DNA of 64,000 nt from Escherichia coli (GCF_003018255.1 NZ_CP027440.1), one strand, 5' to 3'. Numbered from the stretch's first letter, positions 1 to 17,486 are shown. A program made the numbers and translations. The notes: generated from the sequence alone by a model not told the origin.

Positions 1-180
1 CAACGCTCGTCCTACTTCCGATGCCGGGACAGAAAAAGAACCCTGCATCAGACCGAATATCAGTATTCCAACCGCAAACAGAAACAGCCCACCAAGCAAC
101 AGCAGATTTTTAGGGCGTACCAGTGTCGAAAACTTACCAACACGTAGTGGGCGTAGCCCGACGTTCATTATCCGACTCAT
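1..180 (-). CDS. iron-siderophore ABC transporter permease (FecCD family), 5' part only; gene runs off the window start
   Basis: Minus-strand ATG at 180-178 overlaps the TGA stop (179-177) of the upstream permease. Translation MSRIMNVGLRPLRVGKFSTLVRPKNLLLLGGLFLFAVGILIFGLMQG is a typical hydrophobic FecCD N-terminus. Absent from the ORF track because it has no in-window stop. Confidence 0.5.
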   Translation of the reverse strand, partial: MSRIMNVGLRPLRVGKFSTLVRPKNLLLLGGLFLFAVGILIFGLMQGSFSVPASEVGRAL

Positions 181-1160
181 TTGAACATCCTCGTCGCCAT
201 AATGACAAAAACAGGCGCACCAACTAACGCCGTCATGACACCGGTCGCTAACTCATGGGGCGTGAAAAGCGTCCGGGCAATAATATCTGCCAGTAATAAC
301 AAAAGTGCGCCGACACAAGCTGAAAGAGGGAGCAGAACGCGCAGATCCGCTGATACCAGACGCCGGACAATCTGCGGTACCAACAGGCCGACAAAACCAA
401 TGGGGCCAGCAATCGATACGGCTGCGCCACAGAGCAACGCGATCGCAAGCAGGGTAAATGTTCGCGTGCGGAGTACAGAGACGCCCAGCCCCTGCGCCAT
501 GCGATCGCCCAGTGCCAACATGTTAAGGTAGGGTGCAAGGTAAAGGGCTAACACAAATCCCCCCAGAGAAAACCAGGCGGACGTACCCAGCGTCGCCCAA
601 TCCTGCCCCGCTAAATCACCTGCTAGCCATGTCCGCATCGCCAGCAGTGTTTGTTCGTCAAGAATCAGGATTGCAGCCGTTATTGAGGACACGAACGCCG
701 ATAGCGCCACGCCGCATAAAGTAACTTTCATTGGCGTTACCCCTGAACGCCCTGCGGAGGAAAGCAGCAATATCAACAGGAACAATAACGCGCCCCCCGT
801 AGATGCCAGCAGTGGGCGTCCAACCGGAAAGGCCAGTCCAAGCGCACTGGCGGCAACGACAGCAAGAGCGGCTCCGGCATTTAAGCCTAAAATATGTGGC
901 TCCCCCAATGGGTTACGAATGACAGCCTGCAACAAAGCACCAGCAACACCAAGAGAAGCACCGGTAAGCAATGCTGCCGCTAAACGCGGCAAACGGAGTC
1001 TTACAATTACGTTGTGATCGAAGTTTTGCGGATCAAAATGAAGAAATGCCTGCAACACCGTTTGTGGTGCAATAAATCGGGCACCAATCCCTGGATATAC
1101 CACGCATCCCACCAGCAGTAAGGCGAGGAAAATTACAGTAACCAGCCCTGTGCGCATCAT
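177..1160 (-). CDS. iron-siderophore/B12-type ABC transporter permease (FecCD family)
   Basis: 327 aa polytopic membrane protein with FecCD-like C-terminal region (GAPVFV...); ATGA overlap with the upstream ATPase gene and with the next permease. Confidence 0.85.
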   Translation of the reverse strand: MMRTGLVTVIFLALLLVGCVVYPGIGARFIAPQTVLQAFLHFDPQNFDHNVIVRLRLPRLAAALLTGASLGVAGALLQAVIRNPLGEPHILGLNAGAALAVVAASALGLAFPVGRPLLASTGGALLFLLILLLSSAGRSGVTPMKVTLCGVALSAFVSSITAAILILDEQTLLAMRTWLAGDLAGQDWATLGTSAWFSLGGFVLALYLAPYLNMLALGDRMAQGLGVSVLRTRTFTLLAIALLCGAAVSIAGPIGFVGLLVPQIVRRLVSADLRVLLPLSACVGALLLLLADIIARTLFTPHELATGVMTALVGAPVFVIMATRMFK

Positions 1161-1966
1161 ACTTTTTCTACACCACGAAACGGCATGAAGAACGGCTTTC
1201 CCGTCAGAGGATTTATTGATGCGTGAACATCAACGTCAAAGACAGCTTTTACCAGCTCAGGCGTGCAATGCTCCCCCTCATTCAACACACGCACCACTTT
1301 CCCCTGGCGTAAAAATATCAACGTATCGCCATAATTGACGGCAAAATTCAGATCATGCAACACCACGACGACTGTACGCCCGTGATGACGCGTTAAATCA
1401 TGTAATAACTCAAGAATTTCAACCTGATAACGTAAATCAAGCCAGGTTGTGGGTTCATCCAGCAGGATATAAGGCGTCTTTTGCGCCAACACCATCGCAA
1501 TCCAGCAACGCTGGCGCTGCCCACCAGAGAGTTTTTCAACAGGTAAATGTGCAAACTCCTGCGTACCGGTTAATTTCAGGGCCTCTTCCACCGCCTGCTC
1601 ATCGGCGTCGCTCCATTGACGTATGAAATTTTGCCAGGGAAAACGCCCACGCGACACCAGTTCATAAACGGTTAAGCCCTCCGGCAATAATGGCGACTGC
1701 GGCAAGATCCCAAGTCTACGGGATAACGCTTTCGTTGGTTGCTCGTGAATCGCTTTGCCATCAAGCAATATCGAACCGCCCATAGGTTGCAAGATACGTG
1801 CAATGGTGCTGAGCAACGTCGACTTTCCACAGCCGTTTGCCCCAACCAGAACGGTCATTTTTTCTGTGGGAACGGAGAAAGAAACACCATCAACAATGAT
1901 CTTCTTGTGATACCCGGCAGAAACATTGTCGAGGATCAGCCCCTGCCCTTTTGCGTTATGTGCCAC
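1157..1966 (-). CDS. ABC transporter ATP-binding protein, FecE/FepC-like (iron-siderophore import)
   Basis: 269 aa; Walker A GANGCGKST, ABC signature LSGGQRQR, Walker B ILLDEPT; first gene of a minus-strand operon divergent from the TonB-dependent receptor. Confidence 0.9.
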   Translation of the reverse strand: MAHNAKGQGLILDNVSAGYHKKIIVDGVSFSVPTEKMTVLVGANGCGKSTLLSTIARILQPMGGSILLDGKAIHEQPTKALSRRLGILPQSPLLPEGLTVYELVSRGRFPWQNFIRQWSDADEQAVEEALKLTGTQEFAHLPVEKLSGGQRQRCWIAMVLAQKTPYILLDEPTTWLDLRYQVEILELLHDLTRHHGRTVVVVLHDLNFAVNYGDTLIFLRQGKVVRVLNEGEHCTPELVKAVFDVDVHASINPLTGKPFFMPFRGVEKV

Positions 1967-2218
1967 GTGTACGCCAACTTAATCAAAGACAAACAAAAAT
2001 AAAACTCATTCTCCTTTGAGAGTTTGACGCCACAAAATGTAGTAGTCAAGCAGTTAAAAGCCACACAAAAACAAGGTAAATAACAGGTAAAATATTTTTA
2101 TACATAAAAATAAAAACATTAAATATCAATAAATTAAAAGCAATCAAATTGTATAAGCCTTTCATAAAAACACATGTAGCAATTTTTTGTTATTTCTCAT
2201 TTACTACTACATTACTGC

Positions 2219-2241
2219 GTGATTGAATGATTCTCAATTAC
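2219..2241. promoter_or_regulatory. weak candidate Fur box in the divergent promoter region between ABC operon and receptor gene
   Basis: GATTGAATGATTCTCAATTA has partial hexamer similarity to the Fur consensus GATAATGATAATCATTATC (about 11 of 21 by eye), inside a 370 bp AT-rich intergenic region. Confidence 0.25.
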
Positions 2242-2339
2242 ATATCCGATGGCGAAATAACAAACGGATAGTGCTTAGTGAGCAATAAGAAACAATTTTC
2301 ACTCGCGACAATCCGCGAGTTTTTGGGATAACAGACTAA

Positions 2340-4481
2340 ATGGCTATGTTCACACCTTCATTCTCAGGACTCAAAGGTCGGGCGCTCTTTTCACTGCTTT
2401 TTGCGGCACCGATGATTCATGCAACAGACTCTGTAACGACCAAAGATGGCGAAACAATCACTGTTACAGCAGATGCAAATACCGCAACTGAGGCAACCGA
2501 TGGTTATCAACCTCTGAGCACCTCCACGGCGACATTAACCGATATGCCGATGCTGGATATCCCGCAGGTGGTCAATACGGTTAGCGATCAGGTTCTGGAA
2601 AACCAGAATGCGACGACGCTGGATGAGGCGCTTTATAACGTCAGTAACGTGGTACAGACCAATACATTAGGCGGGACTCAGGATGCTTTTGTACGCCGTG
2701 GGTTTGGCGCAAACCGGGATGGCTCCATCATGACCAACGGTCTGCGAACCGTACTTCCTCGCAGTTTCAACGCCGCCACAGAACGTGTGGAAGTGCTAAA
2801 AGGCCCGGCCTCCACGCTGTATGGCATTCTCGATCCTGGCGGACTGATTAACGTCGTGACCAAGCGCCCGGAAAAAACATTCCATGGTTCGGTTTCAGCC
2901 ACCTCCTCCAGTTTTGGTGGCGGCACTGGGCAACTTGATATCACAGGTCCCATTGAAGGCACTCAGCTGGCGTATCGCCTTACCGGGGAAGTGCAGGATG
3001 AAGATTACTGGCGAAACTTCGGTAAAGAGCGCAGTACATTTATTGCCCCGTCACTCACCTGGTTTGGTGATAATGCAACAGTAACCATGCTCTATTCCCA
3101 TCGGGACTATAAAACTCCGTTCGATCGTGGAACGATTTTCGACCTTACGACGAAACAGCCCGTAAACGTTGATCGAAAAATACGTTTTGACGAACCGTTT
3201 AATATTACAGATGGTCAGTCCGATCTGGCGCAACTCAACGCAGAATATCATCTCAATAGCCAGTGGACAGCGCGCTTTGATTACAGCTACAGCCAGGATA
3301 AATACAGCGATAATCAGGCGCGTGTTACCGCGTATGATGCAACGACAGGAACACTGACACGGCGTGTTGATGCAACTCAGGGATCTACCCAGCGTATGCA
3401 TGCTACTCGTGCGGATCTGCAAGGGAATGTTGATATTGCCGGATTCTATAATGAGATTCTGGGTGGGGTGTCATATGAATATTATGATCTTCTGCGTACA
3501 GATATGATTCGCTGTAAAAAAGCTAAAGATTTCAATATCTACAACCCTGTTTATGGTAATACCAGCAAATGTACAACGGTTTCGGCGTCGGACAGTGATC
3601 AGACGATCAAACAGGAGAGCTACTCAGCGTATGCACAGGACGCACTCTATCTGACCGATAACTGGATTGCCGTCGCCGGGATCCGCTATCAGTATTACAC
3701 GCAGTATGCGGGTAAAGGCCGTCCTTTTAATGTCAATACTGACAGCCGCGATGAACAATGGACTCCCAAACTGGGGTTGGTCTACAAACTGACGCCATCG
3801 GTATCCTTATTTGCCAATTATTCGCAAACATTTATGCCGCAGTCGTCAATTGCCAGCTACATTGGCGATCTTCCACCGGAATCATCTAATGCTTACGAAG
3901 TCGGGGCAAAATTCGAGCTATTCGATGGTATCACCGCAGATATTGCGCTGTTTGATATCCATAAACGTAATGTGTTGTATACCGAAAGTGTTGGTGATGA
4001 AACCATTGCCAAAACGGCAGGCCGTGTTCGTTCAAGAGGGGTAGAAGTCGACCTTGCGGGAGCATTAACTGAAAACATTAATATCATTGCCAGCTACGGC
4101 TATACCGATGCTAAGGTTCTGGAAGATCCTGATTATGCAGGTAAACCATTGCCGAATGTTCCTCGTCATACCGGTTCGCTATTCCTGACCTATGACATTC
4201 ATAACATGCCTGGCAATAACACACTGACGTTTGGCGGTGGTGGACATGGCGTAAGCCGTCGTTCGGCAACCAATGGGGCTGACTATTATCTGCCAGGCTA
4301 TTTTGTTGCCGATGCCTTCGCCGCATACAAAATGAAATTGCAGTATCCGGTCACACTGCAATTAAACGTCAAAAACCTGTTTGATAAAACGTATTACACC
4401 TCTTCCATCGCCACAAATAATCTGGGGAATCAGATTGGCGATCCGCGTGAAGTGCAATTCACGGTGAAAATGGAATTTTGA
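2340..4481 (+). CDS. TonB-dependent outer-membrane siderophore receptor (FhuA/FhuE-like)
   Basis: 713 aa; signal peptide; TonB-box-like ETITVTA near the N-terminus; plug-domain motifs; C-terminal aromatic residue (VKMEF) typical of OM beta-barrels. Confidence 0.9.
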   Translation: MAMFTPSFSGLKGRALFSLLFAAPMIHATDSVTTKDGETITVTADANTATEATDGYQPLSTSTATLTDMPMLDIPQVVNTVSDQVLENQNATTLDEALYNVSNVVQTNTLGGTQDAFVRRGFGANRDGSIMTNGLRTVLPRSFNAATERVEVLKGPASTLYGILDPGGLINVVTKRPEKTFHGSVSATSSSFGGGTGQLDITGPIEGTQLAYRLTGEVQDEDYWRNFGKERSTFIAPSLTWFGDNATVTMLYSHRDYKTPFDRGTIFDLTTKQPVNVDRKIRFDEPFNITDGQSDLAQLNAEYHLNSQWTARFDYSYSQDKYSDNQARVTAYDATTGTLTRRVDATQGSTQRMHATRADLQGNVDIAGFYNEILGGVSYEYYDLLRTDMIRCKKAKDFNIYNPVYGNTSKCTTVSASDSDQTIKQESYSAYAQDALYLTDNWIAVAGIRYQYYTQYAGKGRPFNVNTDSRDEQWTPKLGLVYKLTPSVSLFANYSQTFMPQSSIASYIGDLPPESSNAYEVGAKFELFDGITADIALFDIHKRNVLYTESVGDETIAKTAGRVRSRGVEVDLAGALTENINIIASYGYTDAKVLEDPDYAGKPLPNVPRHTGSLFLTYDIHNMPGNNTLTFGGGGHGVSRRSATNGADYYLPGYFVADAFAAYKMKLQYPVTLQLNVKNLFDKTYYTSSIATNNLGNQIGDPREVQFTVKMEF

Positions 4482-4488
4482 TCAAAAA

Positions 4489-4510
4489 AGCCCGGTATGT
4501 TTACCGGGCT
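4489..4510. terminator. hairpin between convergent receptor gene and GPH transporter gene
   Basis: AGCCCGGTA-tgtt-TACCGGGCT perfect stem, preceded by an A-run (T-run on the minus strand). Confidence 0.5.
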
Positions 4511-4588
4511 GAGACTGATGACAAACTCCAAATTGTCTGATGCGCTACGCCCATCAGATCTACCATAGAAATTCAATATATTAAATTT

Positions 4589-5929
4589 TCATATATTTTT
4601 AGGCTGTAAACACACCTTAATCTGTTCGTAATATTCATTATTAATCAGATAAAATCTCATGATGAGTCCGGTAATCAGGTTAAGTATCGCGGGAATGATC
4701 GTCATTAACAGGCAGATCCCCCACAACGCCTGTGGTGTTTGTTCTACGCCAGGTTGATAGTCCATAAACGCTAAAGCGATTCCGATAAACCCTCCCGCCA
4801 GTCCCATACCAAACTTTTGAAAAAAGAGAATCCCGCCAAATGCCAGTCCAGAAACACGTTGCCCCGTTTTCATTTCACCATAATCCACTGACTCAGCAAT
4901 GGATGCCCAATAAATGGGAAGCTGAATATCAGTCAGAAAGGTCACCACAATATAAAATGTAAAAGCTAACACTATAGAATTTGGTTGCACGAAATACATC
5001 GCACCACCCACCACGAACGCCAGTAATTGGGTATAACGAAATATTTTTATTTTGTCGTAGAGTCGAGTAAGCCAGGTGCAAGCGATCATAGCCAGAACAG
5101 AGGCGATCACGCCTGAAGTTAAAAACGGTGAAATTAAAGCATCCCCACCATTCAGGTAATATTTTGCATAATATGCAGCGACAGAGTTACGAATAATCCC
5201 GCCAAACATAATGATCGCAATTACAGCGCCCAAAATGAGCCATTGATCATTTTTGATCAGTAACCGAAACTGCGCGGCCATACCGAGACTGGGTTTTGGA
5301 TGGTAGATGCGCTCTCTCACGCTAAAAAAACAATACAGGCATAAACACGTTGCCAGAATTCCCATTGCCCCCATTGCTATTTGATAACCCAGTTGTACGT
5401 TATTCTTCCCAAGATACATTGCAGATAAAGGAACAATAATTGTTACGGCGAACATGGCAATTTTTGTCATAACAAAACGATAACCATTGGCGCTCAATCG
5501 CTCTTGTGGATCATCCGTGATAACGCTGATTAATGAAACATAAGGAATAGCGATTAACGTATAGGTCAAGGTAAGTAACACATAGGTAGCCCAAGCCCAT
5601 AAAAGCTTAACTGAATAATCGGTATTAGGTGTGGTGAACATCAACCAAATGCTTATCCCAAACGGTATTGACATAAAAAGCAACCACGGCCGATATTTTC
5701 CCCAACGTGTATTCGTTCTGTCTGTCATTGTTCCCACAACTGGATCAATCACAGCATCAAGGATACGTACAGAAAATAACAGAATACCTAAGTCGACGGG
5801 TTTCAGACCAAATACATCCGTGTAAAAATAAGTGATGATCATGGCCAAAGACATCATTACTATCGCGATAGCCATATCACCAGCACCAAAACCTATCTTT
5901 TCATTTATTGTAAGTTTCATACACAGCAC
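4589..5929 (-). CDS. GPH-family (glycoside-pentoside-hexuronide) cation symporter
   Basis: About 445 aa polytopic protein; N-terminal GPH/MelB-type signature YFYTDVFGL...RILDAVIDPVVGTMTDRTNTRWGKYRPWLL; true start may be the second Met (5920). Confidence 0.85.
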   Translation of the reverse strand: MLCMKLTINEKIGFGAGDMAIAIVMMSLAMIITYFYTDVFGLKPVDLGILLFSVRILDAVIDPVVGTMTDRTNTRWGKYRPWLLFMSIPFGISIWLMFTTPNTDYSVKLLWAWATYVLLTLTYTLIAIPYVSLISVITDDPQERLSANGYRFVMTKIAMFAVTIIVPLSAMYLGKNNVQLGYQIAMGAMGILATCLCLYCFFSVRERIYHPKPSLGMAAQFRLLIKNDQWLILGAVIAIIMFGGIIRNSVAAYYAKYYLNGGDALISPFLTSGVIASVLAMIACTWLTRLYDKIKIFRYTQLLAFVVGGAMYFVQPNSIVLAFTFYIVVTFLTDIQLPIYWASIAESVDYGEMKTGQRVSGLAFGGILFFQKFGMGLAGGFIGIALAFMDYQPGVEQTPQALWGICLLMTIIPAILNLITGLIMRFYLINNEYYEQIKVCLQPKNI

Positions 5930-6010
5930 TCATTGATTACGTGAACTTATATTAAAAACAAATATATCTGAACTCATTCAGCACATAACTTTACGAGTGA
6001 GCATAAATGC

Positions 6011-6025
6011 ATTGGTTGATACCAC
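6011..6025. promoter_or_regulatory. candidate operator dyad TTGGT-N4-ACCAC (site 1)
   Basis: ATTGGTTGATACCAC in the divergent intergenic region, about 90 bp upstream of the GPH transporter start; same dyad ends as site 2. Confidence 0.35.
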
Positions 6026-6173
6026 AACAAACCATTGAGTCAATATTGAGCAACATCACATAAAAACCAATTTCACTTAATCTCATGATTTATATATTTA
6101 ATTGTGGTTTTTTCTGTTTTATGTCACAGATAGTGAACAAGCACCATGCGTAATAAAAGTTAAAGAATGTAGA

Positions 6174-6188
6174 GTTGGTATCAACCAC
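6174..6188. promoter_or_regulatory. candidate operator dyad TTGGT-N4-ACCAC (site 2)
   Basis: GTTGGTATCAACCAC just upstream of the RBS of the GntR-family gene; the central 4 nt are the reverse complement of site 1. Confidence 0.35.
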
Positions 6189-6206
6189 TTGAAATGAGGC
6201 TTTGTC

Positions 6207-6959
6207 ATGATAAAAATTTATAAAGCCAGTAAAGGTCAGCTAAAGCATCGTGAAATCTTTGATGAAATAAAGAAAAAAGTAGATAACGGTGAATGGAAAG
6301 AAGGCAAAGCCATACCGACAGAAAGGGAATTGTCAGAATATTATTTAAGTAGCAGAACAACTATTCGAAAGGCAATAGAAAGTCTTAAACAACGCGGCTA
6401 CCTGCATAGTGTCCACGGGCAAGGAACATTTGTATTGCCTTCTCGTAGTAGAGAAAATCATTTATTGCATAGTTTTACCGACGATATTAAAGCTCGAGGT
6501 GGTATACCAGCACAGAATATTCTTGAGATAGGCTATGTTCCTGTCAGTGATGTTATCAGAAAAAATCTCGACCTGGATATCCATATCCAAACCGTATTCT
6601 GTATAAAACGCGTTCGCTATATGGGAAGTACCCCCCTGGGTATTCAGACATCATGGCTTGCATTAAATGACAGGCAAGAAATAACCCAAGAAGATCTGCT
6701 GGCGACGGGTTCGCTCTATATTTTACTGGAAGAAAAACTCGCTATTAAACCTTTAGAAGCAACAGAAATTATCTCTGCCCGGCTTCCCTCGCCCCTTGAG
6801 CGTCAATTACTGGAACTGACTGCCGATGATGTCGTATTAAGTTGTACCCGCGTCACGTTATCCGTGGAACGCAAACCAATGGAGTATGTAGAGATGGTGT
6901 ATCCCGCAAGCCGGTACTCCTACAAAGCACGAATTACAAAAGACAGTTTTAGCGTGTAA
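6207..6959 (+). CDS. GntR-family transcriptional regulator, HutC/FrlR-like (HTH plus UTRA-type C-terminal domain)
   Basis: 250 aa; N-terminal GntR HTH pattern (ERELSEYYLSSRTTIRKAIESL...GYL.SVHGQGTFV); first gene of a tightly packed co-directional array. Confidence 0.85.
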   Translation: MIKIYKASKGQLKHREIFDEIKKKVDNGEWKEGKAIPTERELSEYYLSSRTTIRKAIESLKQRGYLHSVHGQGTFVLPSRSRENHLLHSFTDDIKARGGIPAQNILEIGYVPVSDVIRKNLDLDIHIQTVFCIKRVRYMGSTPLGIQTSWLALNDRQEITQEDLLATGSLYILLEEKLAIKPLEATEIISARLPSPLERQLLELTADDVVLSCTRVTLSVERKPMEYVEMVYPASRYSYKARITKDSFSV

Positions 6960-6972
6960 CAGAGAGAATATT

Positions 6973-8049
6973 GTGAACAAAATAGAACAAGCTGTAATTT
7001 ATAACAAAATATTAGGTTCTTTAGCCTGCGCAGGTATGGGCGATGCATTAGGCGCAGCGACTGAACTCTACAGCATTGATGAAATAAAAGCTCAATGGGG
7101 AGGTTTTTTAAATGCCTTTGTTTCTCCTCCTGCCGATACATTCGCTGGCTCATTAAATGGTATTGCGGGACTTATCACCGACGATTCCAGCCAAATGTAT
7201 GTGTTTTCAGAAGGGTTAATTGAGGCTGGATTTGATAACTTCACCAATAATGACTGGTTAGCTTGTCTTCTGCGTTGGGCCGATATGCAGCCCTACGCAA
7301 ATTATAAAGGCCCCACAACAGAACAAATCGTCAAGGCACTAAAAGAAGGTAGACCAACAAACACCATTGGGCGTATTGGAACATCTTCTCGTCAGGCACC
7401 CAATGTCGGCACCACGAATGGAGCAGGAATGCGTGTAGCCCCTGCAGGATTGATCTGGCCAGGCAAGAAAGAAAAAGCGTGTCACCTGGCGCTAATAACT
7501 TGCCTACCTTCGCATGACACCAATATTGCGATTGCCAGCGCTTGCGCCATCGCTGCGGCGACATCACAAGCTATGTTACCAGAAGCTTCGCTCACATCAT
7601 TACTGGACGCCGCAATCTGGGGAGCGAATTACGGCGAACGCCTGGCCAAACAATATGCACGATGTGTCGCAGGGCCATCTATCGCCATGCGCATCCAACT
7701 TGCAGCGGACATCGCCAGACGAGCCAATGACCTGGAGTCTTGTCTGCGAGAAATGGAAGGTTTGGTTGGTAACTCTGTTGCCGCCCATGAATCCATTCCT
7801 GCGGCAATCGGTCTATTGCTGTACTGCAAAGGAGAACCCTGGGAAACCATTCATGCCTGCGCCAATATTGGCAATGACACCGATAGCATCGCTACGATGG
7901 CAGGCGCAATTGCAGGGGCATGGCGCGGTTTTGATGCGCTCCCTGAAGATAAATATGCCTTTTTCCGCGCCGTAAATAATAAAGATTTCGATATTGAAGC
8001 GATCGCATCGGGTCTGACATTGCTTGCATTAGAGGCACAGGAGAAATAA
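6973..8049 (+). CDS. ADP-ribosylglycohydrolase-family (DraG/ARH-like) hydrolase
   Basis: 358 aa; GTG start 14 nt after the regulator stop; N-terminal GSLACAGMGDALGAATE and C-terminal GNDTDSIATMAGAIAGA match the two metal-binding signature regions of the family. Confidence 0.8.
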   Translation: MNKIEQAVIYNKILGSLACAGMGDALGAATELYSIDEIKAQWGGFLNAFVSPPADTFAGSLNGIAGLITDDSSQMYVFSEGLIEAGFDNFTNNDWLACLLRWADMQPYANYKGPTTEQIVKALKEGRPTNTIGRIGTSSRQAPNVGTTNGAGMRVAPAGLIWPGKKEKACHLALITCLPSHDTNIAIASACAIAAATSQAMLPEASLTSLLDAAIWGANYGERLAKQYARCVAGPSIAMRIQLAADIARRANDLESCLREMEGLVGNSVAAHESIPAAIGLLLYCKGEPWETIHACANIGNDTDSIATMAGAIAGAWRGFDALPEDKYAFFRAVNNKDFDIEAIASGLTLLALEAQEK

Positions 8050-9047
8050 TGAACATGCCAGCCCGTACTCCTGTTATGCCATTAGCGCAAACTCGTGAGG
8101 AGATAAATGCTACGGCGGCATCGTTACGCCATTTGGCAGCTATCTGGGGTGAATGTTTTTCTACTTTTCAGCTCGATAAACGTGCTGTTGAACGCGTCTG
8201 TATAGTGGGATCGGGCGACTCCTGGACGGTGGCACTATGTGCCGCCGCCTGGCTGGGGAAATACACACATCTGTTTTGTTACGCATTGCAAACGTGGGAT
8301 TTTCTTCAGACTGATTTAACCCGTTATCAGAAAGAAACGTTAATCATTATTCTCAGTGCAAGTGGCAGACCATCAATGACCGTTGACGCCCTCTGCCACG
8401 CAGTATGCTCAAACGCGCAAGTGCTGGGTGTGACGAATTGCCCTGGAACACCATTTTGCGCAATAACAGAAAACATGCTCTATACATGGGCGAATAAGCA
8501 GGGTATTCCAACGCAAAGTAGTAGCGTCACACTTTATGCCCTCCTGCGCTTAGCGCAAAAATTATGTCCAGGCTTAACACCACTGCAGATTGAAGATGAT
8601 TTGGAAGGGAAATTTAGCCAGATTAATCAGCACTGGCAGCAAAAGAAGCGCCATTTTTACCAACAAAAAGAGATAACGTTTCTTGGGAGTGGCTTAAGTT
8701 GGGGACTGGCAATATCGGGGAGCAATTTACTTTCTTGCGGCCCACAGATTCGTGCGACAGCCCTTCCACTGGAAGAATTTTATCATTCATTACGCTTACA
8801 TCAGGCTGGTGTCGGTCAGCATTATATTTTACTACCAGCCACATCCTGCGAGTCCCCATTTTACCTTGCAACCCAAAAAGCAATTGTTGAACAGGGAGCG
8901 ACAGCAGAATTAATCAGTTTTATACCTGACGCCAGTGAGTCCAACAATTTATTTCTGGTCATGCAGTGGTTATATGAAATGTGCTGGAATTTAAGTTGTG
9001 ATTATGTCGACGCAGGCGGGCAACGCGTTAGCCATAGGGAGAAATAA
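8049..9047 (+). CDS. double SIS-domain sugar-phosphate isomerase/deglycase-like protein
   Basis: 332 aa; start overlaps the upstream stop (TAATG); SIS motifs VCIVGSGDSWTVAL...LIIILSASGRPSMTVDAL...VLGVTN and a second GSGLSW repeat; unusually Cys/Trp rich. Confidence 0.65.
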   Translation: MNMPARTPVMPLAQTREEINATAASLRHLAAIWGECFSTFQLDKRAVERVCIVGSGDSWTVALCAAAWLGKYTHLFCYALQTWDFLQTDLTRYQKETLIIILSASGRPSMTVDALCHAVCSNAQVLGVTNCPGTPFCAITENMLYTWANKQGIPTQSSSVTLYALLRLAQKLCPGLTPLQIEDDLEGKFSQINQHWQQKKRHFYQQKEITFLGSGLSWGLAISGSNLLSCGPQIRATALPLEEFYHSLRLHQAGVGQHYILLPATSCESPFYLATQKAIVEQGATAELISFIPDASESNNLFLVMQWLYEMCWNLSCDYVDAGGQRVSHREK

Positions 9048-9051
9048 GACT

Positions 9052-9966
9052 ATGAAGAAATTTGATGTCGCCGCTTTAGGCAGTGGAAATATAGATATTT
9101 TTTTATCTATCCCGTCACTCCCCACTCGTGGCGGTAAAGTTGTCGGGACACGTCTGGGTGAACAAGCTGGCGGCACAGTCGCCAACAGTGCCTGTGCGAT
9201 GGGACAACTGGGTCTCAATGTGGTATCTGTTTCATGTGTGGGCAATGATCATTCAGCCTCGATCATTCTTGATGGATTTAAAAAATATCATGTAAATTGT
9301 GATTTCGTTCAGGTAATTCCGGAATTGATTGCCAATACCGCGATTATCTTTATTGATGAATTAGGTGAAAAAACGTTGGTTTACTCGCCTGGTAGTGATC
9401 ATGAGTGGGATAAAGAAAAAGCCCTGCAGGCAATTGCGCAAAGCCGTTATTTTTATACGATGCCAGCAGATATCGAGAAATTTCGTATGCTGGCCGAATA
9501 TTCCCGTAGCCAGATGACAAAAGTTGTCGTTGATATTGAGCCTCATATCATTGCAACACCTGAACACCTTGCCAGAATTTTACACCTTGCTGATATTGCG
9601 ATATTTAATTATGACGGTTTTATTCGTGGCTATGCAACAGAGCCAGATTTTACACTTCTGCATGATATACAAGACGAGTATCAACTTGACGCTGTCGTGG
9701 TTACGCTGGATGTTAGGGGAGTAATTGCAGTCAAAGGCAATGAGCAAGTAAAAATAGGTAGTTATACAATTCCCGTTATTGATACCACAGGCGCTGGAGA
9801 TACTTTTAATGGTGCATTTGTTTATAGCTTAATAAAAAATATGCCCTTAATTGAAGCACTAAAATTTGCTTCTGCCACAGCAGCAATAAATATTACTGCA
9901 TTAGGTGCCAGAGGTCATCTGCCGACACCATCGGAGGTTAATCTTTTTCTTTCACAACACGACTAA
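9052..9966 (+). CDS. PfkB-family carbohydrate/nucleoside kinase (ribokinase-like)
   Basis: About 304 aa taking Met at 9052, 5 nt after the SIS stop (the ORF-track start 8998 is an upstream extension); PfkB signature DTTGAGDTFNGAF and N-terminal AALGSGNIDIF. Confidence 0.85.
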   Translation: MKKFDVAALGSGNIDIFLSIPSLPTRGGKVVGTRLGEQAGGTVANSACAMGQLGLNVVSVSCVGNDHSASIILDGFKKYHVNCDFVQVIPELIANTAIIFIDELGEKTLVYSPGSDHEWDKEKALQAIAQSRYFYTMPADIEKFRMLAEYSRSQMTKVVVDIEPHIIATPEHLARILHLADIAIFNYDGFIRGYATEPDFTLLHDIQDEYQLDAVVVTLDVRGVIAVKGNEQVKIGSYTIPVIDTTGAGDTFNGAFVYSLIKNMPLIEALKFASATAAINITALGARGHLPTPSEVNLFLSQHD

Positions 9967-9993
9967 AATCATATATATACAAAGGTAAATATC

Positions 9994-11118
9994 ATGAAAA
10001 TAAGATATGCCGCTATTTTTCTGGCATTACCGCTGTTATGCACAACAGCGCAGGCAAACAGTTTTCTTCATTATGCTGGGGAGTTTAACTTCCGGACGGG
10101 AGAAAAGCAGAACAATGTCACAATCGCGGGGCTATCAGCCATCACATTTGATGCAAAAAAAAATATTTTCTATGCTATTAACGATAGCAGAAACAATAAT
10201 AAAGAAGGAGATGCCAGTCTTTATACACTAAAAATACAGGTATCATCCAGGGGCATTGAGCAAGTGAATTTTCTCAACCAGCGTCCACTGCTTGATGCAA
10301 AACAGCAACCTTTCGTGACCAATACGGTGGATGCCGAAGGTCTGGCCCTGACACACAATGGTAAATCATTACTCTGGAGTTCGGAGTTAGGTGCTCCACT
10401 GCGTCTGAGCACTCTCGATGGCGTAATGGAGAAAGATTTTACGTCTTTATTTCCTGCTCGCTTTAATATTAGTTCTGACAAAGAGAGCAGCAATGGTATT
10501 CGCAGCGGCAACGCCTGGGAGGGCCTGACAGTTACACCAGATGGAAAATCACTTTTTATCGCCGTTGAAAGCAGCCTTAAACAGGATGGGCCTATTGCAA
10601 GTCCAATAAATTCAGGCACATCACGCTTACTGCAATTTTCTATAGATGCAGACGGTCGACCTTCAAAGCAATTGCATGAATATCTCTATATTACTGATCC
10701 TGTTCCGCAAGTGAGTAAGTTCGGTATTAATGATAATGGCGTATCCGAGGTCATGGCGCTGAATGATCACCAATTGTTGGTCATCGAACGTTCCGGCAGA
10801 AACGTCAGTGCTGGGTTCAATGACTGGGATTACTCTGTCAGAGTTTATATGGTCGATTTAACTGCTGCCAGCGATATCAAGAATATTGACAGTCTGCAAG
10901 ATTGGTCCAATAAATCCACGTTACAACCCGTCAGTAAAAAATTATTAATTGATTTTGCTGATTACACTTCCTCTGCGGATTGTATTGAAGGGGTAACCTT
11001 CGGTCCTCTGATTGATGGGCATACATCGTTAATATTTGTATCTGATAATAATTTCCAGCCCCATCAACAGACGAAATTTTATCTATTCATTGATAAGGAA
11101 AACAAACTTAAAATTTAA
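9994..11118 (+). CDS. secreted protein of unknown function, possibly phytase-like/beta-propeller esterase fold (tentative)
   Basis: 374 aa; N-terminal signal peptide (LALPLLCTTAQA); AT-rich codon usage; function inferred only from general resemblance. Confidence 0.5.
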   Translation: MKIRYAAIFLALPLLCTTAQANSFLHYAGEFNFRTGEKQNNVTIAGLSAITFDAKKNIFYAINDSRNNNKEGDASLYTLKIQVSSRGIEQVNFLNQRPLLDAKQQPFVTNTVDAEGLALTHNGKSLLWSSELGAPLRLSTLDGVMEKDFTSLFPARFNISSDKESSNGIRSGNAWEGLTVTPDGKSLFIAVESSLKQDGPIASPINSGTSRLLQFSIDADGRPSKQLHEYLYITDPVPQVSKFGINDNGVSEVMALNDHQLLVIERSGRNVSAGFNDWDYSVRVYMVDLTAASDIKNIDSLQDWSNKSTLQPVSKKLLIDFADYTSSADCIEGVTFGPLIDGHTSLIFVSDNNFQPHQQTKFYLFIDKENKLKI

Positions 11119-11213
11119 AGTCAAACTATAGATACAAAAACATTCTAATACATGGAATCATCAGATGGTGTATTCGATCACCAAAAATATATTTTATTCT
11201 GAAAGGGAATATT

Positions 11214-11948
11214 ATGAATTCTTATCTTAAAATATCACTTGCAGGAATAACAATGTTATCCTGCCTGTCACCTACACTAGTCTGTGCAGAACAGCCGCAT
11301 GGATTTATTGATTATCGCCATGAGTATCTTGATGATACTCGCACCCACGCGGACCGCGTTGAATTTGGTACATTTTTTAGTAATGGTATCGGTTTGATGG
11401 GAGAATTACGCTATAACACCGATGAAGGTGATAAAGATAAGTGGGACCCCTCACAATTTGGCAATAACGGAACAGGATTATCTGTTGTTTACCGCTTTAA
11501 GCCGCTGGATGACAAAAAATTCTGGTTAGAACCCATGTTCTGGCTTGATACCACGCAATATTGGTCAACTTACGAATATGGTCTTTCTGCGGGTTATGAC
11601 TTCAGCAAAGAATGGAAAGTTTCAGGTCGGTTTCGTTATGACATGGATAAAGCCACCGATAAATCCAAAGGTTATGGCAACGATGATCGTAATAACCGCC
11701 GTTACGATGTGTGGATCGACTATCGACCACAAAAAACCAACTTCCAATATCAGTTAAACCTGGTCTATTACAATAATGGTTATTTAACCTGGAATGATGG
11801 CCATAAAAACTATACCGCATCATTTAAAGTAGGGTACAAAATGGGATCGTGGATACCCTATATGAGTATTGCGGATTATAAAGGTGTGGATAAAACATCA
11901 AGTAATCGCCAAATCCGCTGGCGCTGGGGTCTGACTTATACTTTCTAA
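11214..11948 (+). CDS. small outer-membrane beta-barrel protein, KdgM/NanC-like porin (tentative)
   Basis: 244 aa; signal peptide; alternating aromatic/hydrophilic strands; C-terminal WRWGLTYTF ending in Phe as in OM barrels. Confidence 0.5.
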   Translation: MNSYLKISLAGITMLSCLSPTLVCAEQPHGFIDYRHEYLDDTRTHADRVEFGTFFSNGIGLMGELRYNTDEGDKDKWDPSQFGNNGTGLSVVYRFKPLDDKKFWLEPMFWLDTTQYWSTYEYGLSAGYDFSKEWKVSGRFRYDMDKATDKSKGYGNDDRNNRRYDVWIDYRPQKTNFQYQLNLVYYNNGYLTWNDGHKNYTASFKVGYKMGSWIPYMSIADYKGVDKTSSNRQIRWRWGLTYTF

Positions 11949-11961
11949 TCTGGAATAAAAA

Positions 11962-12831
11962 ATGAATAATAAATTTAAAATCATTCTCTGGATGATGCTC
12001 TCTGCTCTGCCTGCTTTATCTTACGCACAGGTAAAAAATATAGTTACTGGCGAATATAGTGCGGTCAGTAAAATTATCACAGAAAAGGAAACTCTCTATC
12101 CATCCGATAAGATATTATTGGTTTTTGACATTGATAACACGTTATTAACGAGTGGCACTCGCATTGGCGGTGATATCTGGTATCAATGGCAAACCGATAA
12201 ATTGCCTTTAAAGCCGGATGACTCGCAAAAAGTTCCTTGCCTGTATGAAAATACAATCAGTATGCTTTACGAACTTAGCCCTATGCAGCTTACCGAGCCA
12301 CAGTTACCGACAATGTTAAAACAGTGGCAACAAAAGCATACCGCTTTTGCTCTGACATCCCGTGCACCGGATACTCTCTTTCCGACATTGCGGGAATTAA
12401 AGCGAAACGGCATTGATTTTTCGTCTTCCGCACTCAGGAAGAAAGAGGATACTTTGCCACCCTTTGAAAAAGGGAAACTCAAACGGTCATGGCTGTACAG
12501 CCAGGGGGTATTTTTTTCTTCCGGGCAAGATAAAGGCGTAATTCTCGATTATATGCTGGATAAAATGGGGAACAAATATGACGCGATTGTTTTTATCGAT
12601 GACGGGCAAGCAAACATTCATGCGATGACGAAGATGTTCTCTAAGGATAAATGGTCCTCTACGGATTTTACCATTATTCACTATACCAGAGTGGAGGATG
12701 AGCTTATTAAACAACAAGGTGCAGTAATAACAACTGCACAAGCAGAAAAAATGGCTACGGACTGGAAAACTCTGGCTGGTTCGCTGGCAACACTATTTCC
12801 AGATCGTAATAAACTGTGCCCAATAAAATAA
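11962..12831 (+). CDS. secreted HAD-superfamily phosphatase (acid-phosphatase-like)
   Basis: 289 aa; signal peptide; HAD motif I LVFDIDNTLL and motif IV-like VFIDDGQAN. Confidence 0.55.
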   Translation: MNNKFKIILWMMLSALPALSYAQVKNIVTGEYSAVSKIITEKETLYPSDKILLVFDIDNTLLTSGTRIGGDIWYQWQTDKLPLKPDDSQKVPCLYENTISMLYELSPMQLTEPQLPTMLKQWQQKHTAFALTSRAPDTLFPTLRELKRNGIDFSSSALRKKEDTLPPFEKGKLKRSWLYSQGVFFSSGQDKGVILDYMLDKMGNKYDAIVFIDDGQANIHAMTKMFSKDKWSSTDFTIIHYTRVEDELIKQQGAVITTAQAEKMATDWKTLAGSLATLFPDRNKLCPIK

Positions 12832-12839
12832 TCAACGAC

Positions 12840-12868
12840 AACCCGGCAAAACACATGTTTGCCGGGTT
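12840..12868. terminator. bidirectional hairpin between the accessory operon and parE
   Basis: AACCCGGCAAA-acacatg-TTTGCCGGGTT perfect 11 bp stem between convergent genes. Confidence 0.55.
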
Positions 12869-12875
12869 AAGATTA

Positions 12876-14771
<1,896 letters not shown>

Positions 14772-14796: not shown

Positions 14797-15378
14797 TCAG
14801 AGATGGTGCAGACCAAGAAAATCGACGATCGGGTTGAAATAATCTTCGAAGCCCGTGAATGCGTGGTTGCCGCCTTCTATGACAGTCTGGCGGCAGGAAG
14901 CGTAGTACGCCACCGCCTGGCGGTAATCCAGCACTTCATCTCCCGTCTGTTGCAGCAGCCAGATCAAATCCGGCGCTTCCAGCGGGTCAATCTGCATGAC
15001 TTTGAGATCGTAAATATGGCGTGACTCTAGCACATATTGCTGCCCGGTGTAGGGGTTCTCGTTCTGACCGAGATAGTCCGTCAGCAGTTCAAACGGGCGC
15101 ACCGCCGGGTTTACCACCACTGCGGGCAGCATAAAACATTGCGACAACCAGGTGGCGTAATATCCCCCCAGTGACGAACCGACAATACCCAGCGAATCGC
15201 CGCCATGTTCCAGGACAATGGATTCCAGCAGTTCTGCCGCATCGGAAGGATACGGCGGCAACTGCGGGATGATCATCTCAACGTCAGGGTGATGTTCCGC
15301 AAGCCAGTTTTTTAACAAGCTCGCTTTTGCAGAGCGCGGCGAGCTGTTGAAACCGTGTAAATAAAGAAGCGTAGACAT
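14797..15378 (-). CDS. yqiA: esterase YqiA
   Basis: 193 aa alpha/beta hydrolase ([10 protein letters not shown]); conserved position upstream of parE. Confidence 0.85.
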
Positions 15379-16205
15379 CAGTAGCCTTCTGAAGCGGTAT
15401 CAGGTTGGAAACGTGTGTCCGCCAGGCGATGCACCTCGGTGGTCAGCGTGCCATCAGCATGTAACTCGAGAGTACGCCAGCCGGGCGCGATGGTGTCCAG
15501 CGTAAAGTTGGAACAGTGCGGCTTAAACTGCACACAGGTCGACGGCGTTGCCAGCAAGCGGCGACCGTTCCAGTCGAGATCCAGCTCCTGATGAATATGA
15601 CCGCACAGCAAGTATTTGACGTGCGGAAACTTCGCCAGCACGGTATCCAGTTCGCCCGCGTTACGCAGGCTGTGTTGATCAAGCCAACTACAACCCGCAG
15701 GTAGCGGATGATGATGCAGCAGCAGCAACGTATGGCGTTCTGGCGCATCGGCCAGTTTACGTTCCAGCCACTCAAGCTGAAACTCGCTCAGCTCACCGTG
15801 CGGCACGCCAAACACCTGGCTATCCAGCAACAGGATTTGCCATTGCTCACCAATAAACACCCGCTTCGCCGGGGAGATACCCGCATCCTGTAACGCGCTG
15901 TACATCGCGGGCTGGAAATCGTGGTTGCCCGGCAGCCAGACGCAGGGCGCACGAAAACTTGCGATGCCTTCAGCGAAATGCTGATAGGCCGCAGAGGATT
16001 GATCCTGCGCTAAATCACCTGTCGCGACAATCAGGTCGAATTCGTGCTGGTGTGGACGAATCGCCTCCAGCACCGCCTGGTAGCTTTCCCAGGTGTTTAC
16101 CCCTAACAGGGCTTCGTGCTTTTGTGCAAACAGGTGAGTGTCGGTAATTTGTAAAATCCTGACTCTGGCCTCACCAGCCAGAGGAAGGGTTAACAGGCTT
16201 TCCAA
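15378..16205 (-). CDS. cpdA: 3',5'-cyclic AMP phosphodiesterase
   Basis: 275 aa metallophosphoesterase (GDLAQD, GNHD motifs); synteny. Confidence 0.9.
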
Positions 16206-16229: not shown

Positions 16230-16652
16230 CTAGTAAACCGGAATCGCCATCGCTCCATGTGCTAAACAGTATCGCAACCAGTCCGCTAAAAACTGGTTAA
16301 TTTGATGCTTTTCGTCGCGTTGATGCAACTTTTTATTAGGATAATCATACCGCGCTTTGAAGCGAAAAATCTGCTGGCTTGAACACACTTCAGCCACCAT
16401 CGCGTCATGATACAGACGCACCGTCATTGACGGAAGGCTCCAGTAACTGATCGCGGGCGCAGTCTGTTCTATTGTCACCAGGGTAGTGTATCGGGTCGAT
16501 TCCACAATCGTCAGCCGATATTGTGCGTTTGCCACCTGATAGCTTACAGTTTCGCCGGGTGCGTCATTGCGCGGTAACAAACGGCGCAATTGTGAAAAGT
16601 TCATCTCGCACAGGCGCATCATTTCAGGAAAGTCAGGTGTGTAACGCTTCAT
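16230..16652 (-). CDS. yqiB: DUF1249 protein YqiB
   Basis: 140 aa; conserved position between cpdA and nudF. Confidence 0.8.
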
Positions 16653-17282
16653 TTATGCCCACTCATTTTTTAACGCTTGATGATGCAGCTGCAGCCATTG
16701 CAAAGCGATGACCGACGCTGCGTTGTCGATTTTCCCCTCTTCTACCCACTGGTATGCCTGTTCCCGGCTTACCACATGAACGCGAATATCTTCGTTTTCA
16801 TCAGCCAGACCGTGAATACCGCTTGCGGTCGTGGCGTCCACTTCGCCCACCATAATTGACGAACGCTCACTGGTGCCCCCCGGGCTTGCCAGGAAACTTA
16901 ACACCGGTTTGGTCCGTTTGACTATCAGTCCCGCCTCTTCAATCGCTTCGCGACGGGCAACATCTTCCACACTTTCACCCTCTTCAATCATCCCGGCAAC
17001 CATCTCCAGTAGCCAGGGGGTTTCGCTAGTGTCGTACGCGGCAATTCGAATCTGCTCAATCAGCACAACTTCATCACGCACTGGGTCAAAGGGTAGCAAG
17101 ACTGCGGCGTGACCGCGCTCAAAAATTTCCCGCCGTACCTCATGACTCATTTGCCCGTTGAATAGACGATGACGAAATCTATAAAGATCTAATGAAAAAA
17201 AGCCGCGATAAAGTGTTTCTCGTGCAATAATTTCTACATCGTTTTTGCCAAATGTAACGGGCAGGTTGTCTGGCTTAAGCAT
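16653..17282 (-). CDS. nudF: ADP-ribose pyrophosphatase (Nudix)
   Basis: 209 aa; Nudix box ([22 protein letters not shown]); synteny. Confidence 0.9.
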
Positions 17283-17486
17283 TGTTAATGTCCTGGCACT
17301 AATAGTGAATTAAATGTGAATTTCAGCGACGTTTGACTGCCGTTTGAGCAGTCATGTGTTAAATTGAGGCACATTAACGCCCTATGGCACGTAACGCCAA
17401 CCTTTTGCGGTAGCGGCTTCTGCTAGAATCCGCAATAATTTTACAGTTTGATCGCGCTAAATACTGCTTCACCACAAGGAATGCAA

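Follow-up and report, generated by a model that had tools for sequence, protein, structure and literature searches.

A horizontally acquired Escherichia coli island centred on an ADP-ribosylglycohydrolase-family hydrolase and its proposed role in riboside scavenging

What do the eight genes lodged between a siderophore receptor gene and parE do for the Escherichia coli strains that carry them? The question is raised by a 64,000-nucleotide stretch of E. coli sequence NZ_CP027440.1 (hereafter the window, with positions counted from its first letter), in which the open reading frame (ORF) listing gives eight intact, closely spaced genes at 4589 to 12831. The gene for a symporter of the glycoside-pentoside-hexuronide:cation (GPH) family is divergent from the other seven, which encode a GntR-family regulator, an ADP-ribosylglycohydrolase (ARH)-family hydrolase, a double-SIS enzyme, a PfkB kinase, a PF13449 protein, a KdgM-family porin and a DUF2608 protein. 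A preliminary description had treated these genes as one tight unit for glycoside or N-glycoside catabolism. The unit stands, with every ORF intact and the same eight genes annotated by RefSeq in NZ_CP019273 (a 100% identical chromosome from a pig isolate of E. coli), and the catabolic role is supported in a narrower form: from the neighbourhoods of related clusters, we propose that the island's products act in two compartments to scavenge and catabolise a phosphorylated, nucleotide-derived riboside, a reading to which we assign a probability of roughly 60%. None of the eight proteins reaches a curated NCBIfam equivalog; with family-level NCBIfam matches only, none is orthologous to a member of a characterised operon, and our literature search found no paper characterising this gene cluster. 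Neither outcome that would have refuted the preliminary description, orthology to a characterised operon or a lack of co-conservation elsewhere, was observed, and we consider its interpretation essentially right. In our reading the island is a riboside-scavenging system acquired horizontally, conserved across phyla and built around an ARH-family hydrolase.

The proposal starts from the company that the ARH gene keeps. From database look-ups and the scan of a genome collection we assembled at least 80 loci with ARH relatives and annotated them by BLASTP against a reference set and by NCBIfam. Orthologues at least 46% identical to the island protein define a set of 45 loci, several of them incomplete, from Enterobacterales, Vibrio, Burkholderiales, Rhizobiales, Azospirillales, Rhodobacterales and Chloroflexi, and the genes are kept together across a range that takes in Enterobacterales, Vibrio, Burkholderiales, Rhizobiales and Chloroflexi. 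Across these 45 loci, (i) a PfkB kinase gene adjoins the ARH gene in 39; (ii) a Bmp-type nucleoside ABC importer or a GPH carrier is encoded nearby in 32; (iii) an IU-nucleoside hydrolase is present in 31, with two or more in 10; and (iv) PF13449 and SIS genes occur in 17 and 13, respectively. The arrangement varies with the host. Vibrio has genes for a 5'-nucleotidase, PF13449, KdgM and the nucleoside channel Tsx on one side and for GntR, Bmp ABC importer, ARH, SIS and PfkB on the other; Providencia has adenosine deaminase, GPH and KdgM on one side and GntR, ARH, SIS, PfkB, PF13449 and a UshA-type enzyme on the other; the Herbaspirillum cluster comprises TonB receptor, GntR, Bmp ABC importer, ARH, PfkB, IU-nucleoside hydrolase and PF13449 genes; and that of Klebsiella oxytoca comprises ARH, SIS, PfkB, PF13449, GntR, adenosine deaminase, KdgM and DUF2608 genes. 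The Vibrio Bmp binding protein is closest to solved proteins of the Bmp/PnrA family (PnrA/TmpC, BmpD), and adenosine deaminase genes accompany the cluster, inside it or alongside, in Providencia, Kosakonia, Klebsiella oxytoca, a Woeseiaceae metagenome-assembled genome (MAG) and Enterococcus; four of these five deaminases pass the equivalog cut-off, one of them marginally, and the fifth is a Pfam match. The recurrent neighbours all point to ribosides of nucleotide origin and none points to hexose Amadori compounds or pectin.

We propose the ARH-family hydrolase (6973 to 8049, + strand) as the signature enzyme of this system and place it tentatively in the cytoplasm. The assignment comes from its homologues, on all of which PF03747 is recorded, and from its metal-site residues. 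E31, T69-D70-D71 and D302-T303-D304 do not vary among 18 orthologues of 49 to 79% identity, and in a profile alignment they fall opposite E41, T76-D77-D78 and D314-D316-T317 of ARH3, which we take to be its di-Mg2+ site. ARH3, DraG and Tri1 thus share a fold family and these presumed metal ligands with the island enzyme; they differ from it in their low sequence similarity and in context, which is catabolic here and not regulatory. The NCBIfam DraG model scores 41 bits (cut-off 337), and the best solved relative is MJ1187, of uncharacterised function, followed by ARH3 (E ~1e-9). In the profile alignment, ARH3 F143 is matched by a small residue and Y149 belongs to an insertion absent from the island ARH family. 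These two residues presumably sandwich the adenine ring in ARH3 structures, and the lack of counterparts would argue against ADP-ribose itself as the ligand.

The kinase (9052 to 9966, + strand), identified from NCBIfam, solved-structure matches and a residue alignment, is ribokinase-like without being a typical ribokinase. It reaches 148.2 bits against TIGR02152, about half the ribokinase cut-off of 299.65, and 135 bits against NF008353 (cut-off 341), and its closest solved structures are true ribokinases (4x8f, 1e-32; E. coli RbsK, 1e-29). Residues N14, D16, G41, G42, N46 and the catalytic D255 of RbsK are kept, and two others are replaced: K43 by T and E143 by P in the window kinase, with K43 to T or P and E143 to P or A in this kinase and in all 16 of 16 cluster-linked relatives. 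The human equivalents of K43 and E143 are K54 and E154, and E154 contacts the C1 hydroxyl of ribose (PMC12621476). Because loss of this contact is what would be expected if C1 carried a substituent, we propose that the enzyme is a riboside 5'-kinase. The pseudouridine kinase model gives 23 bits.

The sequences show the gene content, the conserved catalytic residues, the persistence of the cluster across phyla, the operator motif and the accessory, island-like nature of the locus; the chemistry of the following scheme, step by step, and its substrate are what we infer from these families and their neighbours. An anionic phosphorylated precursor would cross the outer membrane through the KdgM-type porin, and the PF13449 hydrolase and the DUF2608 HAD phosphatase would strip its phosphoester groups in the periplasm, a UshA-like 5'-nucleotidase taking the place of the HAD enzyme in other taxa. 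The neutral riboside would then enter the cytoplasm through the GPH symporter or, in other taxa, the Bmp-type nucleoside ABC importer, to be phosphorylated at O5' by the ribokinase-like PfkB enzyme and cut at the ribosyl C1 bond by the Mg2+-dependent ARH enzyme, giving ribose 5-phosphate and an aglycone. The cluster-specific double-SIS enzyme may carry out a phosphosugar isomerisation or deamination, and a pathway intermediate would lift repression by the HutC-type GntR protein from paired TGGT-N4-ACCA operators. The kinase-first order is suggested by the loss of the C1-hydroxyl contact and is consistent with ARH enzymes normally handling ribose that bears a 5-phosphoryl group; hydrolysis first and phosphorylation second is a possible alternative.

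As to the substrate, we tentatively place first the adenine dinucleotide-type compounds (NAD-type molecules and ADP-ribosyl conjugates), which would yield adenosine and a ribosyl-X half, because such compounds would account for a periplasmic pair of the pyrophosphatase/nucleotidase type, for the adenosine deaminases and IU-nucleoside hydrolases and for the use of an ARH enzyme; RNA-derived ribosides resistant to IU-nucleoside hydrolases come second. This ranking is weakly held because no aglycone-specific gene recurs and no riboswitch was found. Several points weigh against the scheme as a whole. When the unassigned ORFs of the related loci were clustered, no nicotinamidase, PnuC or other aglycone-specific gene recurred, the clusters holding only TonB receptors, sugar-type ABC parts, a second GlmS-like SIS protein, kinases, regulators and Rhs fragments; Rfam gave no riboswitch or other RNA in window positions 4300 to 13000 (E <= 1) and only rRNA and tRNA matches in seven Firmicutes loci. 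The scheme gives the SIS protein no clear part, the SIS gene is absent from most orthologous clusters, and the evidence for a kinase-first order amounts to two residue substitutions. To our knowledge, the ARH enzymes with an established activity work on ADP-ribosyl groups in alpha linkage, and we know of no abundant free alpha-ribosides in the gut.

A more specific version of the scheme, which we regard as possible though less likely than not, makes the ARH enzyme and the kinase a catabolic route for the ribosyl-X half of nicotinamide adenine dinucleotide (NAD), nicotinamide mononucleotide (NMN) or nicotinamide riboside (NR), of ADP-ribosyl conjugates or of poly(ADP-ribose) fragments such as ribosyl-adenosine. 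Periplasmic splitting and dephosphorylation of the dinucleotide would release adenosine for adenosine deaminase or IU-nucleoside hydrolase, and the remaining riboside would be 5'-phosphorylated and then cleaved by the ARH enzyme to ribose 5-phosphate. If true, the ARH family would gain its first defined role in metabolism as opposed to signalling, and some proteobacteria, E. coli and Vibrio among them along with plant- or soil-associated ones, would be able to feed on host- or prey-derived ADP-ribose chemistry.

The neighbourhoods that favour ribosides of nucleotide origin also fit ordinary salvage of nucleosides and RNA breakdown products, in which no special riboside takes part, canonical nucleosides or nucleoside monophosphates are hydrolysed by the ARH protein as one more enzyme for the purpose, and the kinase acts on nucleosides or ribose. 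Tsx, Bmp importers, UshA-like enzymes, IU-nucleoside hydrolases and adenosine deaminase are all canonical components of nucleoside salvage. We nevertheless consider this account unlikely: a dedicated regulon with an ARH enzyme, a cluster-specific SIS protein and a kinase lacking the C1-hydroxyl contact suggests a distinct substrate, and IU-nucleoside hydrolase coexists with the ARH enzyme in those 31 loci instead of being replaced by it. E. coli, moreover, already has UshA, CpdB, Tsx, the Nup carriers, RihABC and RbsK.

The preliminary description had also compared the gene content with that of the frl fructoselysine operon. Like the island, frl and the fructose-asparagine operon fra combine GntR, PfkB and double-SIS genes in one operon (frlRBD, fraRBD), and an Amadori pathway of this kind would have the kinase act on a ketosamine and the double-SIS protein (8049 to 9047, + strand) serve as a deglycase; the latter is indeed GlmS/FrlB-like at the family level. 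The scores do not follow, with 19.2 bits for the SIS protein against the FrlB model (cut-off 430) and 45.3 bits for the kinase, whose nearest relatives are ribokinases, against the FrlD model (cut-off 247). The invariant motifs of the SIS protein, GSGDS, SSGR, KxGMPTQ and EExxHxLR, are predicted to be phosphosugar-binding and candidate catalytic elements, and in profile searches its subfamily is confined to ARH clusters: members score above 220 bits, the GlmS isomerase domain follows at about 100 bits, and beyond these two the search brought up no other pathway context. SIS is optional among island-type clusters and dispensable in most of them, while ARH, PfkB and a nucleoside importer are constant, and neither frl nor fra accounts for the ARH enzyme, the porin or the periplasmic phosphatases, the ARH, porin and periplasmic phosphatase genes being absent from frl. 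The frl analogy is therefore weak, and an Amadori pathway improbable.

The envelope proteins invite a reading in terms of phosphate. Signal-peptide-like N termini can be read from the translations of the PF13449 protein (9994 to 11118, + strand; ...TAQA/NS), the KdgM-family small outer-membrane porin (11214 to 11948, + strand; ...LVCA/EQ) and the DUF2608 protein (11962 to 12831, + strand; ...LSYA/QV). The PF13449 protein, whose Pfam name is "esterase-like activity of phytase", has five-bladed beta-propellers as its best fold matches, and we propose that it is a periplasmic phosphoesterase. The DUF2608 protein (PF11019, 5.8e-60) carries the HAD motifs FDIDNT (I), ALTSR (II) and FIDDG (IV) and a weak NCBIfam HAD-IIIC match, many of its relatives also match PF03767 (class B/C acid phosphatase), and it is a proposed periplasmic phosphomonoesterase. 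A sequence search against solved structures gave no matches for either protein even at E <= 1, a literature search on DUF2608 returned no hits, and the context of DUF2608 outside ARH clusters, in Vibrio splendidus, was uninformative. In other hosts a UshA-type 5'-nucleotidase (739 bits in Providencia, cut-off 600) replaces the DUF2608 protein found in E. coli, Enterobacter sp. and Klebsiella. A "phytase-like" name, a secreted HAD phosphatase and the listing of PF13449 genes in papers on phosphorus limitation and phosphate solubilisation could all be taken as signs of an island for scavenging phosphate from phytate or organophosphates, with the carbon-side genes incidental. We think this very improbable, given that the PF13449 fold differs from beta-propeller phytase and PhoX, that the constant core is the ARH enzyme, kinase and importer and not the phosphatases, and that regulation is apparently by a sugar-type HutC repressor. 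Just as improbable is a role in signalling or conflict, in which the ARH enzyme would reverse protein or nucleic-acid ADP-ribosylation in the manner of DraG, Tri1 or ARH3 for regulatory or anti-phage/anti-toxin ends, as its family membership and intact catalytic site might suggest: an ADP-ribosyltransferase partner is absent, PADLOC matched 0 of the 8 island proteins, the gene sits in a transporter-kinase-regulator operon in dozens of taxa, the DraG and Tri1 models remain far below their cut-offs, and the adenine-stacking residues of ARH3 are lacking.

Two of the proteins would serve uptake, the porin for the anionic precursor and the carrier for the neutral riboside. The carrier (4589 to 5920, - strand; named MFS transporter by RefSeq) scores 348 bits against TIGR00792 (cut-off 231.35) over residues 11 to 442 and is thus predicted to be a bona fide GPH symporter; it stays below the cut-off of the YagG-like subfamily (360 bits against 610). 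The RefSeq start is an ATG, and the ORF reaches a GTG at 5929. The porin was assigned to the KdgM family, whose members have about 230 amino acids and a signal peptide, by a full-length Pfam match (PF06178, 3.6e-30, model positions 9 to 222 of 222) and its signal-like N terminus. Vibrio, Providencia, Kosakonia, Trabulsiella, Enterobacter and Klebsiella all have a KdgM gene in their orthologous clusters; gammaproteobacterial clusters have a KdgM porin, sometimes together with Tsx, and in Burkholderiales and Nitrospirillum a TonB-dependent receptor stands in its place. Use of pectin or oligogalacturonate, which the KdgM match might suggest, was rejected, pectinolytic genes being absent.

The regulator (6207 to 6959, + strand) has helix-turn-helix and UTRA domains, its orthologues carry PF00392 and PF07702, and its best NCBIfam matches are HutC, PhnF and TreR-type models, all below their cut-offs; we class it by sequence as a HutC-subfamily GntR protein. 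Within the 286-bp control region between the divergent units, TGGTTGATACCA occurs as two exact copies in opposite orientation, and nowhere else in the 64 kb. One lies on the GPH-promoter side (6013 to 6024); the other, inverted, reads TGGTATCAACCA (6176 to 6187) and ends 20 nt 5' of the GntR start codon. In 13 of 14 related loci, in gamma-, beta- and alphaproteobacteria from Enterobacter to Rhizobium and Yoonia, the regulator gene has sites of the form TGGT-N4-ACCA, often paired and with the consensus TGGTACGTACCA, immediately on its 5' side, and we take this footprint to resemble HutC-type operators. A further site occurs between the KdgM and Tsx genes in Vibrio and ahead of the Bmp gene in Yoonia. 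Because of the Vibrio KdgM/Tsx site, the putative operators would tie the envelope and cytoplasmic genes into one regulon, and we propose that the GntR protein is an autoregulated repressor of both divergent units.

How did E. coli come by these genes? Of 5426 complete E. coli genomes, 404 (~7%) carry the island entire, always on the chromosome and in an all-or-none fashion, and the carriers fall into two allele groups (>=99% and ~97.8% identical). The site beside parE exists in three states: (i) in K-12, ygiN directly adjoins parE, in keeping with the preliminary description, which placed other genes here in K-12; (ii) in about 1750 genomes a fit-type iron-uptake cluster lies between ygiN and parE; and (iii) in the 404 carriers the island joins the fit cluster, on the parE side of the TonB receptor gene. 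In 2157 of the 5426 genomes there is a match to the end of that receptor gene. Where the island is missing, a single hairpin divides the receptor gene from parE and the alignment stops at about window position 4498. Two hairpins bound the island. The left one (4489 to 4510; folding free energy -17.5 kcal/mol, z = -6.1, terminator scan) separates the receptor stop (4481) from the GPH 3' end; the right one (12840 to 12868; -17.3 kcal/mol, z = -4.6), which the preliminary description had noted against the 3' end of parE, is common to the convergent HAD and parE genes (parE, 12876 to 14768, - strand). No shuffled sequence was as stable as either. Only 44 nt separate the end of the array from the convergent parE stop codon, and the junctions from GntR to HAD measure 13 nt, a 1-nt overlap, 4 nt, 27 nt, 95 nt and 13 nt, which corrects two of the lengths given earlier by one (14 to 13 and 5 to 4 nt) and leaves the rest as they were. 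The AT-richness reported for the island is borne out, its G+C content being 0.36 to 0.50 against 0.53 to 0.56 in parE and the flank. Low G+C content, patchy all-or-none distribution and nested insertion at a site empty in K-12 support horizontal acquisition, as had been suspected. The nearest relatives of the island ARH protein (76 to 85% identical) are in other Enterobacteriaceae (Enterobacter, Leclercia) and in metagenomes, and the island carries no mobility genes.

Among described systems, the closest functional analogue is found in the Bacteroidetes, where ribose-induced loci known as RUS combine outer-membrane uptake, a permease and ribokinase-type kinases (Glowacki et al., bioRxiv 10.1101/574913). 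Their variable hydrolases include IU-nucleoside hydrolases, ADP-ribosylglycohydrolases, phosphodiesterases and HAD enzymes, and the authors propose that ribose is released from nucleosides, cofactors and (poly)ADP-ribose (bioRxiv 10.1101/574913). Both are thus regulated loci of uptake, kinase and hydrolase genes, ARH included, and ARH-bearing ribose-utilisation loci have already been described in Bacteroidetes, where the RUS ARH genes are likewise uncharacterised. The parts differ: RUS loci use SusC/D, RusR and RusT, and the island and its relatives use KdgM (in betaproteobacteria a TonB receptor), a HutC-type GntR protein and a GPH or Bmp-ABC carrier. The island would work like RUS but, being built from different families and lacking SusC/D, is not a member, a distinction drawn at the level of gene families.

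Closer to home, E. coli yegTUV with yegW (GgaR) and Salmonella STM4065 to STM4068 also comprise a transporter, an ARH-family protein, a PfkB kinase and a GntR repressor. The preliminary description was right to see a parallel core here, in a cluster whose genes have likewise no assigned function (PMC10819704); the relationship itself is distant. Identities of the island ARH protein, kinase and regulator to YegU, YegV and YegW are 32, 22 and 26%, respectively, and the carrier has no significant match to YegT, an NHS-family protein; yegTUV also lacks the SIS, porin and periplasmic enzymes. On these identities we regard yegTUV as a distant paralogue of the island and not an orthologue. In Salmonella, the PfkB protein STM4066 phosphorylates aminoimidazole riboside, so that a riboside kinase beside an ARH gene would not be without precedent; its structure (1tyy) matches the island kinase at 1e-14, compared with 1e-32 for true ribokinases.

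Two further systems are analogies of logic only. In Haemophilus influenzae, NAD, NMN and NR are taken up by way of the OmpP2 porin, NadN, e(P4) and PnuC; like the proposed island pathway, this route couples porin entry of a dinucleotide to a periplasmic UshA-family nucleotidase and HAD-type acid phosphatase and to import of a neutral riboside. It ends in salvage by the NadR kinase/adenylyltransferase and not at an ARH hydrolase, and the island has neither PnuC nor NadR. In pseudouridine catabolism, the PfkB-family riboside 5'-kinase YeiC acts before the glycosidase YeiN, which releases ribose 5-phosphate from the 5'-phosphate. The same logic underlies the kinase-then-hydrolase order proposed here, although YeiN belongs to a fold family different from that of ARH and cleaves a C-glycoside.

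Our literature search found no substrate for the ARH enzyme of any catabolic operon, be it YegU of K-12, STM4067 of Salmonella or the RUS ARH proteins. The value of the island is that it offers a tractable E. coli entry to this problem: it is a compact, self-contained and naturally variable ARH system in a genetically tractable species, and a reporter with which to look for the inducer could be built on the regulator and its putative operators. An answer would give a function to four little-understood families at a stroke, namely to this ARH clade, to the cluster-specific SIS clade, to PF13449 and to DUF2608, and would show which ribose-containing nutrient marks the carrier strains in gut, animal and water habitats.

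The related loci yielded several further observations. Firmicutes carry distant ARH paralogues (33 to 45% identity) as two to five tandem copies beside PfkB and a Bmp ABC importer; in Hungatella, Erysipelotrichaceae, Lachnoclostridium and Oscillospiraceae (L062, L063, L077 and L080), the two to five tandem copies are 29 to 38% identical to the window ARH protein, with PfkB and Bmp genes adjoining, which looks like diversification of specificity in gut Firmicutes. Four Caldilineaceae/Anaerolineales MAGs (L011, L021, L030 and L054) pair one ARH orthologue, ~50% identical, with three to four IU-nucleoside hydrolase paralogues, two GlmS-like SIS proteins, two PfkB kinases and a CUT1-type sugar ABC transporter. 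In MAGs of Woeseiaceae and other gammaproteobacteria (L067, L069 and L070), a GPH carrier 63 to 64% identical to those of the enterobacterial clusters lies beside PfkB and an ARH protein only 34 to 35% identical to that of the window, the carrier being far better conserved. The adenosine deaminase call in the Klebsiella oxytoca locus (L093, 5444 to 6770) gives in frame 1 a 55-amino-acid hydrophobic peptide, reminiscent of XapX, followed by stops, with the deaminase in another frame; it is either a miscall or two adjacent genes. A complete Tn7-like module (TnsA, TnsB, TnsC, TnsD/TniQ and TnsE; L002, 13485 to 21062) lies ~400 bp 3' of the PfkB gene in Vibrio bivalvicida and hints at how the cluster moves or at a shared insertion hotspot. 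Beside three Enterobacterales clusters (L010, 15826 to 17706; L005, 15929 to 18015; L007, 13202 to 15276) are conserved genes without Pfam or NCBIfam matches and an Rhs-associated core fragment, probably unrelated polymorphic-toxin debris, which is absent from the E. coli island.

Within the window itself, the fit-type cluster that precedes the island (177 to 4481; also L089) encodes an ABC ATPase, two FecCD permeases, a binding protein, an RpiR regulator and a 713-amino-acid TonB-dependent siderophore receptor, and is itself an accessory insertion at the ygiN/parE junction. Between the left hairpin and the 3' end of the GPH gene, positions 4536 to 4565 read tgtctgatgcgctacgcccatcagatctacc, which resembles the consensus of a REP/BIME element. 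Six overlapping or antisense ORFs of 84 to 153 amino acids (7514 to 7975, +; 8623 to 8883, -; 8991 to 9245, -; 10221 to 10619, -; 12487 to 12741, -; 12816 to 13118, +) are without RefSeq annotation and were treated as chance ORFs. Just past parE, at 14797 to 16205 (and in L001 at 16398 to 18883), lie the core genes yqiA, cpdA (cAMP phosphodiesterase), yqiB and nudF (ADP-ribose/ADP-sugar pyrophosphatase); the closeness of nudF to the ARH gene looks coincidental, because island-free K-12 has the same neighbourhood.

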